64,000 bases of DNA, taken from an uncultured Christensenella sp. (lineage in GTDB: Bacteria; Bacillota; Clostridia; Christensenellales; DTU072). The stretch is taken from positions 150,901 to 214,900 of the forward strand of contig CAYQKV010000001.1 in assembly GCA_964418255.1 (NCBI GenBank). Direction: 5' to 3'. Below are positions 1-53,775 of this stretch, in pieces (position 1 is the stretch's first letter; the number at the start of each line of letters is the position of its first letter). Position numbers and translations under genes: made by a program. The notes under the pieces are model-generated. The model saw only the letters and a program-made list of their open reading frames with translations, was not told the origin of the DNA and did not search any database.

Positions 1-236
1 AAAAATTTTTTGGCTTCGGGTATTCCGTCAAGCAAACCGTAGTTGCGATAGTCGGTTCCGTTCATTTTTTCTTTAAGCGTTCCGAAAACTTCAAACAAAC
101 CGTCCGACACGTCAAGTTGTTCGGGGTTCGGCTTTCCTCTGCTCATATCGAGTTTCAGATTGAGTTTTTTGTAGGAATCGTATCTTTCTTTTTCCTGTTC
201 GTATATTTTTTTTGCGTTTTCAGGCGTAAATTTCAT
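1..236 (-). CDS. PLP-dependent aminotransferase (class I/II fold), N-terminal 78 codons only; the gene continues past the window start
   Basis: ATG at 236..234 with GAGG 6 nt upstream. Hand translation MKFTPENAKKIYEQEKERYDSYKKLNLKLDMSRGKPNPEQLDVSDGLFEV... stays open to base 1. The LDMSRGKP..QLD signature recalls aspartate-aminotransferase-like enzymes. Confidence 0.5.
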   Translation of the reverse strand, partial: MKFTPENAKKIYEQEKERYDSYKKLNLKLDMSRGKPNPEQLDVSDGLFEVFGTLKEKMNGTDYRNYGLLDGIPEAKKF

Positions 237-252
237 AATATACCTCGTTTAG

Positions 253-1575
253 TTAAATTTCTTCCTTGTCTTTGTTTCTTACTTTAAGATTTATCGGCGT
301 TCCGCTGAAATCGAATGCTTTTCTGAGAGCGTTTTCCAGATATCGTTTATAAGAAAAATGCATTATTTCCTCGTCGTTGACGAATAAAACGAACGTCGGC
401 GGATTAGTCGCCGCTTGCGTAGCGTAATATACTTTGAGTTTTTTTCCGTTACGGGTAGGCGGTTCGTTTACGCTCATCGCGTCCTGCAACACGTCGTTCA
501 GAAGTCCGGTCGTTATCCTTCTCGAAGCGTTTGCATAGACCGCTTCCAGCGCTTCAATCACGTTTCCGACCCTTTGACCCGTCAATGCGCTGATAAACAT
601 AGGTTTATAATAACTCATAAATTTGAGTTCGGCGTCGAGTTTTTCGTTAAATTTGTTTATCGTATAACTGTCCTTAACTACCGCGTCCCACTTATTCATT
701 ATAATGACCGACGGCTTTCTGCTTTCGTGCACAAGTCCGCATATTTTGACGTCCTGTTCGCTCAGTCCTTCCGCCGCGTCGATAACGACCGCAACTACGT
801 CCGCTCTTCTCATCGCGTCGATACTTCTTATAACGCTGTAATACTCGACGTCCTCTTCGACTTTGCTCTTTTTCCTTATTCCCGCGGTGTCGATTATCCG
901 ATAATTTTTATCCCCAATAGCAAACGGCGTGTCTATTGCGTCGCGAGTAGTTCCCGCGATATTGCTGACTATTACACGCTCGAAACCGAGAATTTTATTT
1001 ACAAGGGAACTTTTCCCCGCGTTTGGTTTCCCGACGACGGCGATTTTCAACGCTTCGTCTTCTGCCTCGCTCTCCGCACGCTCGTGAAAATGCGCGACGA
1101 TTGCGTCAAGTAAATCTCCTAAATTAAGGCTGTTTTCCGCAGATACGGGAATAGGTTCGCCCAGCCCCAACGCGTAAAAATCGTAAGCTCCGTACGCCGA
1201 GCCGTTGTCGATTTTGTTTACTGCGAGAACTATCGGTTTTTTCGACATTCTCAACATATCCGCAACGTCGTAGTCGTCGGGCATAATGCCCGTCTTCCCG
1301 TCCACGAAATATAAAATCACGTCCGCAAGGTCTACGGCAAGCTCCGCCTGTCTGCGTATATGCGACCACATTTCGTCTTCGGAATGAATTTCTATACCGC
1401 CCGTGTCCACCATAGTAAAAGTATAGCCGCACCACTCTGCGTCCGCGTATACTCTGTCTCTCGTTACTCCGGGCAAATCCTCTACGATACTGATACGTTT
1501 TCCCGCCATTTTGTTGAAAAACGTGGATTTCCCGACGTTCGGTCTGCCGACAATCGCCACTAATGGTTTAATCAT
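253..1575 (-). CDS. der: Ribosome-associated GTPase Der/EngA (two tandem GTPase domains plus KH-like C-terminus)
   Basis: 440 aa. Two P-loops (GRPNVGKST and GKPNAGKSS), DTGG/DTAG and NKxD motifs. The ATG overlaps the upstream stop (ATGA). Confidence 0.95.
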   Translation of the reverse strand: MIKPLVAIVGRPNVGKSTFFNKMAGKRISIVEDLPGVTRDRVYADAEWCGYTFTMVDTGGIEIHSEDEMWSHIRRQAELAVDLADVILYFVDGKTGIMPDDYDVADMLRMSKKPIVLAVNKIDNGSAYGAYDFYALGLGEPIPVSAENSLNLGDLLDAIVAHFHERAESEAEDEALKIAVVGKPNAGKSSLVNKILGFERVIVSNIAGTTRDAIDTPFAIGDKNYRIIDTAGIRKKSKVEEDVEYYSVIRSIDAMRRADVVAVVIDAAEGLSEQDVKICGLVHESRKPSVIIMNKWDAVVKDSYTINKFNEKLDAELKFMSYYKPMFISALTGQRVGNVIEALEAVYANASRRITTGLLNDVLQDAMSVNEPPTRNGKKLKVYYATQAATNPPTFVLFVNDEEIMHFSYKRYLENALRKAFDFSGTPINLKVRNKDKEEI

Positions 1576-2867
1576 CTCTTTTTACTCCTTCCGCTGACTA
1601 TCGCTTCCAGAAAATCCTCTCCGCCGCAATGGCTTACAACAATTCTTTTCCGTAACTTTTTAGATAATTCTTTAAGCGTAATTCCGTCCAAAAATACGTC
1701 TTCGAACTCTTTAAGCATTACCGACGGTATCATAAGGAAATCTTCTTTGAATGTATTTTTTCCGTATTGCGCAATAATATCCGTCGCCGTAACGAGTCCC
1801 GTGACGGTGACGCTTCTCCCGAAAAAATCGTTTTTTACTACGTAAATATTGATTTGCACGTCGGGATATTTCTCGTTTACCGCGTCGCGCGCCCGTATCA
1901 TACTGCTTTCGCCGCTTACGCCGGTTATTATGCCGATTTTCCGCTTAATTTTCTTGTCGGGCGCAAAAGAAATCGCGTCGTTAAGTTCCGACATAAACTT
2001 CGAAATTACGCCCACTCCGTTTTCTATCTGTTCGTACTGTCCGTAGTATTCCGCGTCTCTTACCGGCAACTCGGCTATCTGATACATTTCGTCGGAACAG
2101 TAACAAAAACTCGGGTGACTCCGATAAAAACTTTCCGTAAGCTCTATCGCGTCTCGCGCCTGTTCTTTGGTAAGAGGGTCAATATGATACTTCCCCTCTC
2201 TGTGTCCCGTCAACCCGACGGGAACAACGGCTACCGTAGATACTCCGAGAGCATAAAGGTCGGCAAGAGATTTTTCAAGCTGTTTACCGTCGTTTATCCC
2301 GCCTACGAGGACTATTTGCGCGTGTATGGTTATCCCCGCTTTTATCAACCTGTCTATAAGCTCGGTTTGCGGCGGGCATTTTTTTATTCCGAGTAAAAAT
2401 TTTCTCACTGCTTCATCCGTAGCGTGAACGGAAACGTAAAGCGGAGAAAGTTTGTAATCTATTATTCGTTGAATATCCGTTTCGGTTAAGTTCGTTCCCG
2501 TTATGTAAGAACCGCTTATAAAACTCAGTCGATAATCGTCGTCTTTAACGTAGAGAGTATCTCTAAGTCCTTTGGGTAGTTGTTTTACAAAACAGAAAAT
2601 ACAGTTATTGTGACATTCTCTCGGTTTGATTTCCACGCTTTCGTCAAATTCAAGCCCGAGGGTATCAAATTCGTTTTCCTTTACGAATTTAACTTTTTTC
2701 TCCTCGCCTCGGCGATATATCGTCAGTTCTCCTTCCGAAAGGCTGTCCGCATATATATAATCGAGAATATCGACAAATTCTCTTCCGCAAAAAGCCTTAA
2801 CTTCGTCTCCGACGAAAACGTTGCCGCGAAGAATACTTTCCGAAAGAATTTTCTTAACAAATGCCAT
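1572..2867 (-). CDS. DUF512-type radical SAM protein (the usual upstream partner of der in Firmicutes)
   Basis: CHNNCIFC radical-SAM cysteine motif. 4-nt overlap with der. I prefer the ATG at 2867; the ORF-track start at 2894 is a TTG nine codons upstream. Confidence 0.75.
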   Translation of the reverse strand: MAFVKKILSESILRGNVFVGDEVKAFCGREFVDILDYIYADSLSEGELTIYRRGEEKKVKFVKENEFDTLGLEFDESVEIKPRECHNNCIFCFVKQLPKGLRDTLYVKDDDYRLSFISGSYITGTNLTETDIQRIIDYKLSPLYVSVHATDEAVRKFLLGIKKCPPQTELIDRLIKAGITIHAQIVLVGGINDGKQLEKSLADLYALGVSTVAVVPVGLTGHREGKYHIDPLTKEQARDAIELTESFYRSHPSFCYCSDEMYQIAELPVRDAEYYGQYEQIENGVGVISKFMSELNDAISFAPDKKIKRKIGIITGVSGESSMIRARDAVNEKYPDVQINIYVVKNDFFGRSVTVTGLVTATDIIAQYGKNTFKEDFLMIPSVMLKEFEDVFLDGITLKELSKKLRKRIVVSHCGGEDFLEAIVSGRSKKR

Positions 2868-2944
2868 ACGCCTATTATCGTATATTTGGCGCAAAATGTC
2901 AAATATTCCCTTGTAAAATAGATATAAAATGTTATAATATAATT

Positions 2945-4606
2945 ATGCCGAACGACGTAATAACTCTTTCCGCAGCGGTAAGCGAATTGAAAACTCTGCT
3001 TACCGGCGGACGAATAGAAAAAATTTATCAACCGGAAACGGACGAAATTACGCTCAGCGTAAAGAATTCCCGTAAATCGAACACGCTTGTCATCAGCGCA
3101 AATCCATCTCATCCGAGAATACATATAACCGCGCAAAAAAAGGAAAATTCCTATACCGCGCCTGCCTTTTGTATGCTTCTCCGAAAACATATTTCCGGCG
3201 GTTTTATCGAAAACGTAGAAATATTCAACTCCGACCGCATAGTCAAAATCACCGTTATCAACAAGAACGAACTTAAAGACTCAAACCGCTTTTTTTTAAT
3301 GGCGGAACTGATGGGAAGATACAGCAACGTAATTCTTACTTCGGAAAATTTCAAAATCATAGACGCGATACGGCGTATCCACTTCGACCAGAGCACTACG
3401 CGCTATATCTTGCCTAATCTCGAATACACGCTCCAACCGAAATCGAGAATATCTCTCGACGAAACGGAAAAATTATCGGAATTTTTCGCAAAAAGCGAAA
3501 TAAATAGCGATTCGCTTATTAAAAACATAAACGGAATAAGTAAAGAAACCGCCAAAGAAATCGCCTCTTCCACTTGCCCGAAAGAAAAATTCTACGAACT
3601 TCTCAATATTAACAATTCGGATACCTATTATCCGTGTTTGAGATACGAAAACGGCGTTCTTAAAGATTATTACGTTTACCCATACGAAACGCTTCGCGGC
3701 GAATTTATAATTTATCCTACGCTTAACGAAGCTCTTGACGCGTTTTACGGTTTGTACGACGGTTCCGAAAGAAAAAAGGCGTCGACCAAAACCGTTACCA
3801 CCGTTCTCAAACGCCTTAAAGCAAAGACCGAACGACGCATTGCCGATAACGAAGCAAAACTCGCGGAATTGGACAAGGCTATGTATTATCAGAAATGCGG
3901 CGAACTGATTTTATCCAATATTTATGCAATAAAACCGCGCGACGTTATTCTTAAATGCATCGACTACTATGAAGATAAGCCCGTCGAAATTTCGCTCGAC
4001 CCGAAACTTACGCCTTCCGACAACGCTCAACAATATTTCAAAAAATACGCAAAGCTTAAACGCGCGGCGGAAATAGCAAAAAATCAGCTTGACGCGCTAA
4101 AAGAACAGCGCGAATATCTCGAATCGGTGGAAGTAAGCATAAGCAACTGTTCTTTGAAATCGGAATACGACGAAATACTCGAAGAGCTTAATTCTTTATC
4201 GGGTTTACGAAATCCGCTTAAAAGGCGCACGCTCAAAGAAAAGCCTACGGGACCGACTCGTTTTACCGTAGAAGGCTATTCCGTTTATTTCGGAAAAAAC
4301 AATCTGCAAAACAACGAAGTTACTTTCTCCGTCGGGGACGGCGGCGACACCTGGTTGCACGTCAAAGCGCACCACGGCGCGCACGTCATAATTAAAGGTA
4401 AACCCCCGCAGGAAGTAATCGAAAAATGCGCCCGCGTCGCCGCCTATTACAGTTCGGCAAAAAATTCGGAAAAAGTCGAAGTCGATTACACATTGAGAAA
4501 GCACGTCAAAAAAATTCCATCGGCGATGCCGGGAATGGTGACATACACAAATTACCGTTCTCTGCTCGTTTCTCCGACGGATTATACAACAATATGCGAC
4601 AAATAA
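2945..4606 (+). CDS. rqcH: RqcH / NFACT-family ribosome quality control protein (fibronectin-binding protein A-like)
   Basis: The N-terminus MPNDVITLSAAVSELKTLLTGGRIEKIYQP..., a coiled-coil middle region and a C-terminal NFACT-R-like region (GDTWLHVKAHHGAHVII) are typical of the family. The ATG at 2945 removes a 28-codon extension that overlaps the divergent gene. Confidence 0.85.
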   Translation: MPNDVITLSAAVSELKTLLTGGRIEKIYQPETDEITLSVKNSRKSNTLVISANPSHPRIHITAQKKENSYTAPAFCMLLRKHISGGFIENVEIFNSDRIVKITVINKNELKDSNRFFLMAELMGRYSNVILTSENFKIIDAIRRIHFDQSTTRYILPNLEYTLQPKSRISLDETEKLSEFFAKSEINSDSLIKNINGISKETAKEIASSTCPKEKFYELLNINNSDTYYPCLRYENGVLKDYYVYPYETLRGEFIIYPTLNEALDAFYGLYDGSERKKASTKTVTTVLKRLKAKTERRIADNEAKLAELDKAMYYQKCGELILSNIYAIKPRDVILKCIDYYEDKPVEISLDPKLTPSDNAQQYFKKYAKLKRAAEIAKNQLDALKEQREYLESVEVSISNCSLKSEYDEILEELNSLSGLRNPLKRRTLKEKPTGPTRFTVEGYSVYFGKNNLQNNEVTFSVGDGGDTWLHVKAHHGAHVIIKGKPPQEVIEKCARVAAYYSSAKNSEKVEVDYTLRKHVKKIPSAMPGMVTYTNYRSLLVSPTDYTTICDK

Positions 4607-22383: not shown

Positions 22384-22412
22384 ATTATACTTTATAAAGG
22401 TTACAATGTCAA
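22384..22412 (-). promoter_or_regulatory. Consensus sigma-A promoter of the three-gene ABC operon; near-leaderless
   Basis: Minus strand TTGACA-17 nt-TATAAT. Only 10 nt (TTTATAAGTT, no SD) lie between the -10 and the ATG at 22373. Confidence 0.75.
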
Positions 22413-22475: not shown

Positions 22476-22690
22476 CTAAACACGCGCAAAGTGGAGAGAT
22501 TGCGTTGATTTTTTTCGTAAGTGAACCGTCGCTGTACTATCGTACAGTAGGTGAAACTTACGGAAAAGTGGAAAAAACTTTAATTTTATCCGCTTTTCAC
22601 AATAATAAGAGGAAAAATTTTTCTTTAATTATTTTCGCATAGCTTTTACGGACGCAAATAAACGCGATATATCCACTCCTAAACACGCGC
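22476..22690 (+). repeat. Copy 1 of a roughly 200-bp TIR-bounded intergenic element (MITE-like), including its flanking direct repeats
   Basis: Direct repeat CTAAACACGCGC at 22476..22487 and 22679..22690. Ends aaAGTGGAGAGATTGCGTTG and CGCGATATATCCACTCC are inverted repeats. Homologous to 51789..52006 in reverse orientation. Confidence 0.7.
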
Positions 22691-22695
22691 TCCGC

Positions 22696-22723
22696 TTGAC
22701 TTTTACTTTTATTTATATATAAT
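22696..22723 (+). promoter_or_regulatory. Sigma-A-type promoter of the RluA-family gene; apparently leaderless
   Basis: TTGACT-16 nt-TATAAT. 8 nt (AAATAAAT, no SD) lie between the -10 and the ATG at 22732. Confidence 0.7.
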
Positions 22724-22731
22724 AAATAAAT

Positions 22732-23469
22732 ATGAAACAAGAATTTACATCGGAAAATTTACAGGTAGTGTACGAAGATAACCATATCATCGCAATAGTT
22801 AAGCCGCAAAACGTTCCGTCGTGCCCCGACGAAACCGGCGATAAGGACGCGCTGAGCACGGTTAAAGATTATCTTATAAAAAAATATAACAAATCCGGAG
22901 ACGCTTACGTCGGACTTATTCATCGTCTCGACCGACCGACCGGCGGAGTAATGGTTTTCGCAAAAACTTCCAAAGCCGCCTCGCGTATGTGCGAAGCTAT
23001 GAAAAACGGCGATTTCGAAAAGCGCTATTTCGCCGTTGTCGTAGGAGTGCCCAGAGAAAAATCCATACTGGGACTTACCAACTATCTTCTCAAAGATTCC
23101 TCTAAAAATATGGTTTACGCCGTCCCTATGGCTACCGAAGGCGCCAAAAAAGCCGTTCTCGATTACACCACTCTCGACGTAAAAGACAATCTTTCGCTTG
23201 TTAGCGTAAAACTTCACACCGGACGCGCGCATCAGATACGCGTACAAATGCAAACTCTCGGACACCCTCTTTTCGGCGACCAGCGTTACGGCGCAAACAA
23301 ATCTCCCGCAGGATACAACCTCGCTTTGTGGGCGGTGGAACTTAAACTTACTCACCCCGTAACCAAAGAACGTATGGTTTTCAGGGTTTATCCCCCCGTC
23401 GACAACGTTCCGTGGAAATTTTTCGACGTGTCGCGCTATCTTTCGATTTCAATTAAAGATAACTATTAA
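22732..23469 (+). CDS. RluA-family pseudouridine synthase (no S4 domain)
   Basis: 245 aa. Catalytic HRLDRPTGGVMVF motif. HTGRAHQIRVQM motif. Confidence 0.88.
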   Translation: MKQEFTSENLQVVYEDNHIIAIVKPQNVPSCPDETGDKDALSTVKDYLIKKYNKSGDAYVGLIHRLDRPTGGVMVFAKTSKAASRMCEAMKNGDFEKRYFAVVVGVPREKSILGLTNYLLKDSSKNMVYAVPMATEGAKKAVLDYTTLDVKDNLSLVSVKLHTGRAHQIRVQMQTLGHPLFGDQRYGANKSPAGYNLALWAVELKLTHPVTKERMVFRVYPPVDNVPWKFFDVSRYLSISIKDNY

Positions 23470-51720: not shown

Positions 51721-51752
51721 TCCGCCTCCCGTCCGCAAATTCATTTTTATTG

Positions 51753-51781
51753 ATTATACCAAATACGCCGTCTTTTTTCAA
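51753..51781 (-). promoter_or_regulatory. Sigma-A-type promoter of the dgt-like/pcrA/ligA unit
   Basis: Minus strand TTGAAA-17 nt-TATAAT. Confidence 0.7.
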
Positions 51782-51788
51782 GCGAATA

Positions 51789-52006
51789 TCACTCTTTAGG
51801 AGTGGATATATCGCGTTGCTTTACGCCCGTAAAAACATATATAAACTAATTCAAAAAGAGCGTTTTTTTTGCCAATATTGCAAATAAGCGGATGAAAATC
51901 ATAGTTTTTATGGGCTTTTCCGTAAGTTTCACCTACCGTACGTCGGTACGGCGACGGTTCACTTACGAAAAAAATCAACGCAATCTCTCCACTCCGTCGC
52001 TCTTTA
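51789..52006 (-). repeat. Copy 2 of the TIR-bounded intergenic element (reverse orientation), including its flanking direct repeats
   Basis: Direct repeats TCACTCTTTA (51789..51798) and TCGCTCTTTA (51997..52006). Ends GGAGTGGATATATCGCG (51799..51815) and CGCAATCTCTCCACTCC (51979..51995). A 79-nt block differs from copy 1 at only 5 positions. Confidence 0.7.
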
Positions 52007-52044
52007 CGCTTTCTCATACTTTTATCTTAAATTGCTTTTAATGT

Positions 52045-52073
52045 AAAAAAGGTTCTCTTTCGAGAACCTTTTT
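52045..52073. terminator. Bidirectional-looking intrinsic terminator after the trpB-like gene
   Basis: AAAAAAGGTTCTC-tttc-GAGAACCTTTTT. Confidence 0.85.
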
Positions 52074-52092: not shown

Positions 52093-53484
52093 TTAGTTGT
52101 ATAAACTGTTTTGCGGAATGTCGGGCAACTGAGCGATTGACTTAGCCAAATCTTCGTCGGTGGGGATATAGTCCGTCATCGTTCCGTCGTTAAACGATTT
52201 GTATGCGGTCAGGTCGAAATAACCCGTTCCCGTCAAACCGAAGAGAATAACTTTCTTTTCGCCCGTTTCTTTACATTTCAACGCTTCGTCCATAGCGACC
52301 TTGATAGCGTGCGCGCTTTCCGGCGCGGGGAAAATTCCTTCGCATTTAGTGAATTTTTCCGCAGCTTCGAAGACTTTTGTCTGCTCTACCGAAGTAGCTT
52401 CCATATATCCGTCGTGATAGAGTTTACTGAGTATCGGGCTCATCCCGTGGTATCTAAGTCCACCCGCGTGATTGGAAGAAGGCATAAAGTTACTTCCGAG
52501 GGTGTACATCTTTGCAAGAGGAGTCATTTTGCCCGTATCGCAGAAGTCGTATTTATAAACGCCTCTCGTGAGAGAAGGACAACTTGCGGGTTCTACCGCA
52601 ATGAATTTGTAATCCGCCTCTCCTCTGAGTTTTTCACCCATAAACGGCGCAATCAGACCGCCGAGGTTGCTTCCGCCTCCCGCGCAACCGATTATAATAT
52701 CGGGTTTAACGCCGTATTTATCCAACGCGACTTTGCTTTCGAGACCGATAATGCTCTGATGCAACACGACCTGGTCGAGCACGCTGCCGAGGACGTAACG
52801 GGAATTCGGCACGCTCAGAGCACATTCAACCGCTTCGCTTATCGCGCAACCGAGACTTCCGCCCGTTCCGGGGAATTCTTCGAGAATTTTTCTTCCCACG
52901 TTTGTCGTATTGCTCGGGCTGGGCACCACGTTTGCTCCGTAAGTTCTCATAACCTCTTTTCTGAAAGGTTTCTGCTCGCTGCTCACCTTAACCATAAAGA
53001 CGTCGAGGGGAATTTTGTAGAACGCGCACGCCATAGACAGCGCGGTTCCCCACTGTCCGGCGCCGGTTTCTGTCGTGAGGTGGGTAATTCCCTGTTCTTT
53101 TGCGTAGTAAACCTGCGCTATTGCCGAATTGAGTTTATGCGAACCCGAAGTGTTGTTTCCCTCGAATTTATAATAAATTTCCGCGGGAGTATCGAGTTCT
53201 TTTTCCAACCAATACGCTCTTACGAGTGGCGACGGACGGAACATTTTATAAAAATCTCTGATTCCTTCGGGTATTTCTATATACTGCGTCGTCTGGTCGA
53301 GTTCCTGTTTTATCAATTCGTCGCAGAAAACGGGTCTGAGGTCGTCCGCGGTAGCCGGTTGAAGGGTAGCGGGGTTAAGATAAGGCGCGTGTTTATCTTT
53401 CATATCCGCTCTGAGGTTATACCAACATTTAGGCAATTCCTGTTCCGATAAGTAAATCTTTGTAGGAATGTTCTTCTGTTTCAT
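52093..53484 (-). CDS. trpB: TrpB-like PLP enzyme (tryptophan synthase beta chain, long TrpB2-type form), stand-alone
   Basis: 463 aa. PLP-lysine region GNNTSGSHKLNSA, GAGQWG and GCAGGGSNLGG motifs. The long N-terminal extension is typical of TrpB2. Preceded by a Trp T-box. Confidence 0.85.
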   Translation of the reverse strand: MKQKNIPTKIYLSEQELPKCWYNLRADMKDKHAPYLNPATLQPATADDLRPVFCDELIKQELDQTTQYIEIPEGIRDFYKMFRPSPLVRAYWLEKELDTPAEIYYKFEGNNTSGSHKLNSAIAQVYYAKEQGITHLTTETGAGQWGTALSMACAFYKIPLDVFMVKVSSEQKPFRKEVMRTYGANVVPSPSNTTNVGRKILEEFPGTGGSLGCAISEAVECALSVPNSRYVLGSVLDQVVLHQSIIGLESKVALDKYGVKPDIIIGCAGGGSNLGGLIAPFMGEKLRGEADYKFIAVEPASCPSLTRGVYKYDFCDTGKMTPLAKMYTLGSNFMPSSNHAGGLRYHGMSPILSKLYHDGYMEATSVEQTKVFEAAEKFTKCEGIFPAPESAHAIKVAMDEALKCKETGEKKVILFGLTGTGYFDLTAYKSFNDGTMTDYIPTDEDLAKSIAQLPDIPQNSLYN

Positions 53485-53513: not shown

Positions 53514-53760
53514 AAAAAACGGTGAACTCGCTTTGGGACGAATTCACCGTGTTGCCACCCAATTTCATAACCTGTTAAAGCTACCTCTTTACTCGATACT
53601 ATCATATCGATTCCCTGTTACGTCGGAACCACGTCGGAAACTACTCGAATTCTTTCGCCCCCGCCCTCAATAGTCCATTCGGCATATCTCCGCTATTTCG
53701 TCGCACCAACCCGAAACTCTCTGAAAACCTCGAAACGCTTACTACTCTATCTCAACGGTT
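53514..53760 (-). promoter_or_regulatory. T-box riboswitch leader, specifier UGG (Trp), with terminator/antiterminator
   Basis: Minus strand elements: AGTA, the AGAGA box (CAGAGAGT), distal GGTGCGA, specifier loop GAA-TGG-A (TGG = 53677..53675), the T-box sequence AAATTGGGTGGCAACACGG (53569..53551), and the terminator ACGGTGAATTCG...CGAGTTCACCGT plus TTTTTT (53550..53514). Confidence 0.85.
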
Positions 53761-53775
53761 TATTAAGTTATTTTT

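Follow-up and report, generated by a model that had tools for sequence, protein, structure and literature searches.

The DNA between a TrpB-like gene and a dGTPase gene holds a short repeated element, and the question it raises is what this element is and why both of its copies in the window (the whole stretch of 64,000 nucleotides analysed here) stand in the same place relative to a promoter. Copy 2 (197 bp) occupies 51799..51995 on the minus strand, with its left end at 51995 and its right end at 51799, toward the promoter of the dGTPase gene. Copy 1 (192 bp) occupies 22488..22679 on the plus strand, and its right end at 22679 points to the promoter of an RluA-family gene. Both were delimited by alignment of one copy to the other, by end patterns and by nhmmer; the pairwise alignment gives a size range of 192-197 bp, or roughly 195 bp. 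Each copy starts at its 5' side with (AA/GG)AGTGGAGAGATTGCGTTG and ends at its 3' side with CAACGCGATATATCCACTCC. Pattern scans and nhmmer found no other copies inside the 64-kb window. The initial annotation had described a two-copy element with these coordinates and sequences, with copy 2 placed between the terminator of the TrpB-like gene and the dGTPase promoter and flanked by a 10-bp repeat with one mismatch, and sequence and alignment confirm all of this.

The ends of the element are those of a DNA transposon. Its terminal inverted repeats (GGAGTGGAGAGATTGCGTTG / GGAGTGGATATATCGCGTTG) are 20 bp long and imperfect, with 17 of 20 positions paired in copy 2, and the same ends are present in copy 1. 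In copy 2 the left repeat (GGAGTGGAGAGATTGCGTTG) lies at 51976..51995 and the right repeat (...CAACGCGATATATCCACTCC), which is the promoter-side end, at 51799..51818, both on the minus strand. Direct repeats abut the inverted repeats at both copies. Those of copy 1 are identical over 11 bp (TAAACACGCGC at 22477..22487 and again at 22680..22690, plus strand; 11/11). Those of copy 2 (TAAAGAGCGAC at 51996..52006 and TAAAGAGTGAT at 51788..51798, minus strand) agree at 9/11 positions over 11 bp, at 9/10 as a 10-mer, and at 8/9 in a 9-bp reading of the duplication (AAAGAGCGA versus AAAGAGTGA). The flanking repeats differ in sequence from copy to copy, as is expected of target-site duplications.

The copies are most alike at their ends. 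Positions 3-81 are identical at 74 of 79 sites and the last 22 nt at 20 of 22, versus 44 of 71 in the middle (Fisher p = 2e-6 for the left block against the middle). The conserved left 79 nt contain a subterminal imperfect hairpin (CGTAAGTGAACC...GGTGAAACTTACG; 51921..51967, minus strand), recognized by folding. Within a family of transposons, constraint falls on the cis-acting ends alone, and it serves continued mobility rather than a function in the host; copies descended from diverged masters thus have their ends in common but not their interiors. The left block exceeds the inverted repeat in length, and the excess is probably subterminal transposase-binding sequence or former regulatory sequence of the parent element. 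Gene conversion between copies is an alternative explanation of the conserved ends.

Neither copy has coding capacity for a transposase. The sole open reading frame that spans a copy encodes 73 aa and covers all of copy 2 (51796-52017, minus strand). It appears as an annotated gene in a public ENA assembly (L013, 5001-5222), so that the element is called a 73-aa hypothetical protein in at least one public assembly. Among 5.8 billion proteins its only homologue is itself, and the reading frame is not kept in copy 1; the gene call is an artefact of the element. The element is very probably a MITE, that is, a non-coding, non-autonomous DNA transposon.

Sister-species contigs, retrieved via orthologues of the flanking genes, show what these sites look like without it. 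The copy 1 site is empty in three sister species (L014, L016 and L018; 82-83% RluA identity), in which the intergenic region measures 144-162 nt, versus 359 nt in the window. The copy 2 site is empty in the sister species represented by L021/L022 (91% dGTPase identity), with an intergenic region of 195 nt versus 372 nt in the window. At these levels of amino-acid identity in the neighbouring genes (82-83% and 91%) the sister intergenic regions are about 180-200 bp shorter. The empty sites in sister species demonstrate that the element was inserted, as the initial annotation had supposed in describing copies of a mobile element. Both promoters are present in the element-free relatives: the rluA promoter (GCTTGACTTT...TATAAT...ATGAAACAA) is kept in the three sister species and the dGTPase promoter (GCTTGAAAAA...TATA(A/C)T) in the other. 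The promoters are therefore host features that predate the insertions, neither delivered by the element nor dependent on it, and the element is an insertion beside pre-existing promoters. A promoter carried by the element itself was rejected on the same ground. Within the species, a strain with 99.4% identity overall (L001) carries copy 1 at L001 2757-2948 with 4 substitutions in 192 nt, about equal to the ~7 in 166 nt of flanking intergenic DNA. Two of the four (GTACAG to GCACTG) break the upper stem of the subterminal hairpin. The same strain also shows several changes in the spacer of the rluA promoter.

A third copy lies about 3 kb past the end of the window. It is partial, comprising positions 1-115 of contigs L034/L035/L036 (~66,926-67,040 in window numbering, minus strand). 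One of these three independent contigs, SRR6824176_12740 (L034), terminates on one side in copy 2, of which it includes the first 27 nt, and on the other inside copy 3, so that it spans exactly from copy 2 to copy 3 (15 kb), and the contigs of two other samples break at the identical base. The visible part of copy 3 is the right 115 nt only, which share 79-82% of their positions with copies 1 and 2 and form a mosaic of both. Its right tip is followed by 16 nt and then by TTGATT-17-TATAAT, upstream of an HTH/cupin regulator gene (L034 179-775), and its orientation to this promoter is that of copies 1 and 2. There are, then, three copies in about 78 kb of DNA. Logan contigs from several samples (L002-L006, L009 and L034-L036) end inside the element or at its edge (at window positions 22513, 22540, 22676 and 51969); short-read assemblies break inside the element, as expected of a repeat, and the element thereby fragments metagenome assemblies.

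The host promoters were identified by promoter scan, each with a score of 11/12. The sigma-A-type promoter of the dGTPase gene (TTGAAA-17-TATAAT with a TG extension) lies at 51753..51781 on the minus strand, and that of the RluA-family gene (TTGACT-16-TATAAT) at 22696..22723 on the plus strand. Copy 2 shares its intergenic space with an intrinsic terminator hairpin (52046..52073) 3' of the TrpB-like gene, which bounds the far side of that space; its neighbours encode a TrpB-like PLP enzyme (52093-53484), preceded by a full-length T-box leader (Rfam RF00230, 113 bits; 53531-53764, minus strand), and a dGTP triphosphohydrolase. On either side of copy 1 are the genes for the RluA-family pseudouridine synthase and for a 471-aa protein without a family match. 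The host is an uncultured gut Clostridia bacterium; proteins encoded in the window have their matches among uncultured Clostridia, and some sources assign these relatives to Christensenellales.

From the right tip of the element to the -35 hexamer the distance is 16 nt in copy 1, 17 nt in copy 2 and 16 nt in copy 3. The same end of the element faces the promoter in all three copies, which by itself is weak evidence with n=3, as such agreement has a chance of 0.25. Taking sites of at least 10/12 as promoter-like, the window has 14 of these in ~4.7 kb of ancestral intergenic DNA, and the chance that a random intergenic insertion would show the matching offset and orientation is ~0.003 per copy. 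Three of three copies at 16, 17 and 16 nt are far beyond chance. The initial annotation had noted a right terminus 16-17 bp upstream of the -35 hexamer and a non-random position and orientation relative to promoters; the measured spacings agree with the former, and the spacing and orientation of copy 3 extend the latter to a third promoter, contrary to the random placement of further copies that the annotation had named as a refutation. Its proposal of an insertion preference for A/T-rich DNA upstream of promoters stands as to the preference and fails as to the target: the duplicated targets contain CACGCGC and GAGTGAT, which rules out A/T-rich targeting alone, and what the sites have in common instead is a fixed distance upstream of a sigma-A -35 box.

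Placement of this kind has been described. In their account of prokaryotic Mutator-like DDE transposases, Guerillot et al. (2014; PMC3942029) reported that TnGBS and ISLre2 (p-MULT 3) insert 15-17 bp upstream of the sigma-A -35 box, with a peak at 16, and in fixed orientation, with the right inverted repeat (IR-right) beside the promoter. Some ISKra4-group elements also target promoters, but in both orientations. The authors ascribed the fixed orientation to the asymmetry of the two inverted repeats and proposed, by analogy with Ty3, that the transposase touches the RNA polymerase initiation complex. In the p-MULT families the inverted repeats measure 18-39 bp and end in C, and the direct repeats measure 8-9 bp (PMC3942029); ISLre2 is nearly restricted to Firmicutes (PMC9208149). 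The promoter-side placement of the present element is thus behaviour already published for ISLre2/TnGBS, and in this respect it is largely explained.

The ends of the element were compared with nine ISLre2 repeat pairs (PMC3942029 Table S1; left repeats ...AGTGTAAAAT..., right repeats ...AGTGTCAAG...) in ungapped, terminus-anchored alignments. Extended by 1 nt (CGGAGTGGAGAGATTGCGTTG...), the left repeat agrees with the nine ISLre2 left repeats at 14/30 positions on average and at 18/30 at most; AGTG occupies positions 4-7, and GCGTTG occupies 16-21, its exact place in ISTco3. In other registers the score is 7-10/30, and the IS256/ISAzba1 controls reach ~9/30. In a shuffle test that allowed the best of six registers this weak left-repeat similarity has p ~0.009. 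Over the first 22 nt, each end of either copy aligns best in the register extended by 1 nt. Were the termini indeed 1 nt longer, the element would read (C)GGAGTGGAGAGATTGCGTTG ... CGCGATATATCCACTCC(T), copy 2 would lie at 51798-51996 (minus strand), the distances to the -35 box would be 15, 16 and 15 nt (3/3 copies) and the duplication, which is 11 bp strictly (10 bp in the earlier reading), would shorten to 9 bp, the length in ISLre2: AAACACGCG with 9/9 identity at copy 1 and AAAGAG[C/T]GA with 8/9 at copy 2. A terminal C, with both strands of copy 2 ending in ...CCACTCC, is obtained under the boundaries of the 11-bp duplication only; in the extended register the right tip is T. The right repeat of the MITE is near background, and the CTTGACAC (TTGACA) motif that is conserved near the tips of ISLre2 right repeats is absent from the right inverted repeat of the MITE. 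Kinship with the ISKra4 group, IS256 or ISAzba1 by inverted repeats was rejected, with similarity at background.

The same table of ISLre2 repeats permits a side observation. The right repeats carry the consensus -35 hexamer CTTGACAC 4-5 nt from the tip, and the left repeats have TTTTACAC. The end that lands beside promoters thus itself looks like a -35 box. In the MITE, TTGATT lies 17 nt inside the left end, and the same spacing of TTGA recurs in its targets.

Taken together, the MITE resembles ISLre2/TnGBS elements in its position 15-17 bp upstream of a sigma-A -35 box, in its fixed orientation with one particular end on the promoter side, in its Firmicutes host (Spo0A is encoded in the window), in its imperfect and asymmetric inverted repeats of ~20 bp with a terminal C, in the weak in-register similarity of its left inverted repeat and, should the termini be 1 nt longer, in a 9-bp duplication. 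It differs in size and content, as ISLre2/TnGBS elements bear a transposase and are insertion sequences of 1.5-1.8 kb or ICEs of up to 52 kb, whereas the MITE is ~195 bp and encodes none. It also differs in lacking CTTGACAC in the right repeat and in its strict duplication of 11 bp versus 8-9 bp. The functional resemblance is strong; judged by end sequence, membership of the ISLre2/TnGBS family is plausible but unproven.

We consider it likely, if by no means certain, that the element is a MITE of ~195 bp moved in trans by a promoter-targeting ISLre2/TnGBS-like transposase, and the targeting mechanism itself is probably of the ISLre2/TnGBS type. On this account a DDE transposase supplied in trans would insert the copies, the enzyme most likely being a Mutator-like p-MULT 3 (ISLre2/TnGBS) transposase or one that behaves as such. 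It would set the element 15-17 bp ahead of the -35 hexamer in a sigma-A promoter, with the right inverted repeat on the promoter side, and the insertion, falling just outside the host promoter, would disrupt nothing. The left 79 nt (inverted repeat and subterminal hairpin) and the right terminus would be the cis-acting parts needed for transposition, and the interior would drift. We infer the identity of the transposase, and likewise that targeting rather than selection produced the spacing; the spacing is tighter than selection against promoter disruption would give, since copies 2 and 1 had ~57-80 nt of free spacer to land in. Neither the window nor ~14 kb of same-species DNA next to it contains a recognizable transposase gene; a p-MULT 3 (UPF0236) transposase is absent from the Pfam annotation of ~50 kb of DNA that is same-species or syntenic, and from the open reading frames and targeted scans of the rest of the window.

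The spacing might have another origin if the MITE belonged to a different DDE family that does not target promoters, in which case the distances would reflect survivorship or a preference for local sequence (TAAA). The strict 11-bp duplication, unlike the 8-9 bp of ISLre2, would fit such a family, as would a right inverted repeat unlike those of ISLre2 and the fact that two of the duplications start with TAAA. Intergenic space in this compact genome is also scarce, at about 5.1 kb in 64 kb. Selection, however, predicts a broad spread upstream of the -35 box, not 16, 17 and 16 nt in one orientation; the third flank starts with TTTA, not TAAA; and the known ISLre2/TnGBS mechanism gives the observed spacing exactly. 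We regard a non-targeting family as unlikely. We think it quite unlikely, too, that the copies are the footprint of an undescribed lineage of promoter-targeting elements from uncultured Christensenellales, with an 11-bp duplication, inverted repeats of its own and independently evolved targeting, or else co-opted regulatory modules upstream of promoters.

The last of these possibilities deserves separate treatment, as the initial annotation had suggested that the element may supply something to the promoter, such as a binding site or an insulator. Co-option by the host would make the promoter-side end or the left 79 nt a site for an activator or repressor, an UP-like element or an insulator, with selection keeping both the spacing and the conserved blocks. 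The promoter-proximal end lies at about -52 to -73 and contains the palindrome GATATATC; by its promoter coordinates the right terminus would be centred near -62, where class I activators typically sit. The copies are unevenly conserved along their length (the comparison of left block and middle given above), and the hairpin shows one compensatory change from copy 1 to copy 2. Any active transposon is expected to keep its ends, however, and the downstream genes (for the RluA-family synthase, the dGTPase and the HTH/cupin regulator) are without obvious common regulation. The promoters are fully conserved in element-free sister species, which leaves the suggestion of a contribution to the promoter unsupported. 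In strain L001 the element varies about as much as its flanks, and two of its changes break the hairpin. The initial annotation had also argued that near-identical ends around a diverged middle are not what neutral decay of a dead transposon would give. The pattern is as described and does speak against simple neutral decay; as evidence of a host function it does not hold, being the usual pattern of a transposon family. Co-option is, in our estimate, distinctly improbable.

A structured small RNA gene or a cis-regulatory RNA present in several copies, with the pairing of the ends as its closing helix, would account for the folding, as both copies fold much better than shuffled sequences on both strands (z = -4.4 to -7.5). 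DNA with inverted repeats folds strongly on both strands anyway. The alifold covariation term is unfavourable (+1.56), the middle helices are not conserved, and the two pair-breaking changes in L001 outweigh any support from the one compensatory change by which copies 1 and 2 differ in the subterminal hairpin. Rfam gave no match at gathering thresholds, and relaxing E to 10 added only noise; promoter and terminator scans found no strong promoter or terminator inside the element. Copy-specific direct repeats and empty sites in sister species also argue against an RNA gene. We hold this explanation to be very improbable.

Several other known systems share features with the element. Classical bacterial MITEs such as Correia/NEMIS, RUP, BOX, ERIC and MITEAba12 (reviewed in PMC10969869) are likewise short, non-coding and intergenic, with terminal inverted repeats and a target duplication; they too fold into strong hairpins, occur as multiple diverged copies and vary in presence or absence among relatives. 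A fixed distance to the -35 box is not reported for them, in contrast to the present element, and several carry promoters or IHF sites of their own, of which this element shows none. The same review of prokaryotic MITEs (PMC10969869) makes no mention of a MITE derived from ISLre2 or TnGBS. Elements of the ISKra4 group (p-MULT 4) resemble the MITE in that some insert upstream of sigma-A promoters, with 9-bp duplications, but they have near-perfect inverted repeats, insert in both orientations and occur in hosts that are mostly not Firmicutes; their repeat tips (GGGTGC..., GGGCGT...) do not resemble the element in register. Eukaryotic Pack-MULEs are also non-autonomous and Mutator-type, have duplications of 9-11 bp and favour the 5' end of a gene. 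The textbook example of an element that integrates at a constant distance from the transcription start, through contact with the initiation machinery, is Ty3. Pack-MULEs and Ty3 belong to another domain of life with other polymerases, and their likeness to the element is an analogy of mechanism only. Brochet (2009) and Guerillot (2013) are further references on ISLre2-family and TnGBS elements.

Relatives of the element were sought in several collections. A profile of the copies run with nhmmer against the window and 36 loci (~0.4 Mb) recovered no further and no degenerate copies. In the GTDB species genomes, among which the genome of this species is absent, the hairpin pattern had 0 matches and a degenerate inverted-repeat pattern had 3 chance matches, in Bradyrhizobium and Methylacidiphilaceae. 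A 20-mer of the element had 2 chance matches in JGI metagenomes, within a high-GC coding region, and three patterns searched against IMG/VR gave 0, 0 and 2 chance matches, the last pair in phage coding sequence. The element had no blastn match among plasmids and phages. As the searched collections hold no related element, they offer no intermediates that would join the MITE to a known insertion sequence.

If the preferred reading is correct, the element is the non-autonomous (MITE) counterpart of the ISLre2/TnGBS promoter-targeting transposons, of which none was found in the literature searched. About 200 bp of end sequence would then suffice for precise and oriented targeting 16 nt upstream of a sigma-A -35 box, and the element would offer a minimal substrate for the study of promoter recognition by these transposases, for which contact with RNA polymerase is the proposed mechanism. 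Its copies would also flag active sigma-A promoters in the genomes of uncultured bacteria, the host promoters themselves being independent of the element.

Two further observations concern the neighbourhoods of the copies. In a related species (L026/L027, positions 1-4600; 85% dGTPase identity) an MFS transporter gene replaces the TrpB-like gene upstream of the dGTPase gene. The small genes clustered beyond it (PcfJ, MutS_I, DUF7222) are not the same in the two samples, and the region looks like a variable mobile or phage-like one.

The second concerns the starts of the genes that the copies adjoin. The dGTPase gene probably starts at ATG 51720, with GGGAGG ahead of it, rather than at 51744, and a leaderless dGTPase gene was rejected in view of this downstream ATG and its Shine-Dalgarno sequence. 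The divergent genes around copy 1 have near-consensus promoters (22384-22412, minus strand, 12/12; 22696-22740, plus strand, 11/12), their -10 boxes end 8-10 nt before the annotated ATG and a Shine-Dalgarno sequence is absent. The TATAAT-N8-ATGAAACAA layout of rluA is kept in the three sister species, which suggests that the divergent genes flanking copy 1 give leaderless mRNAs.
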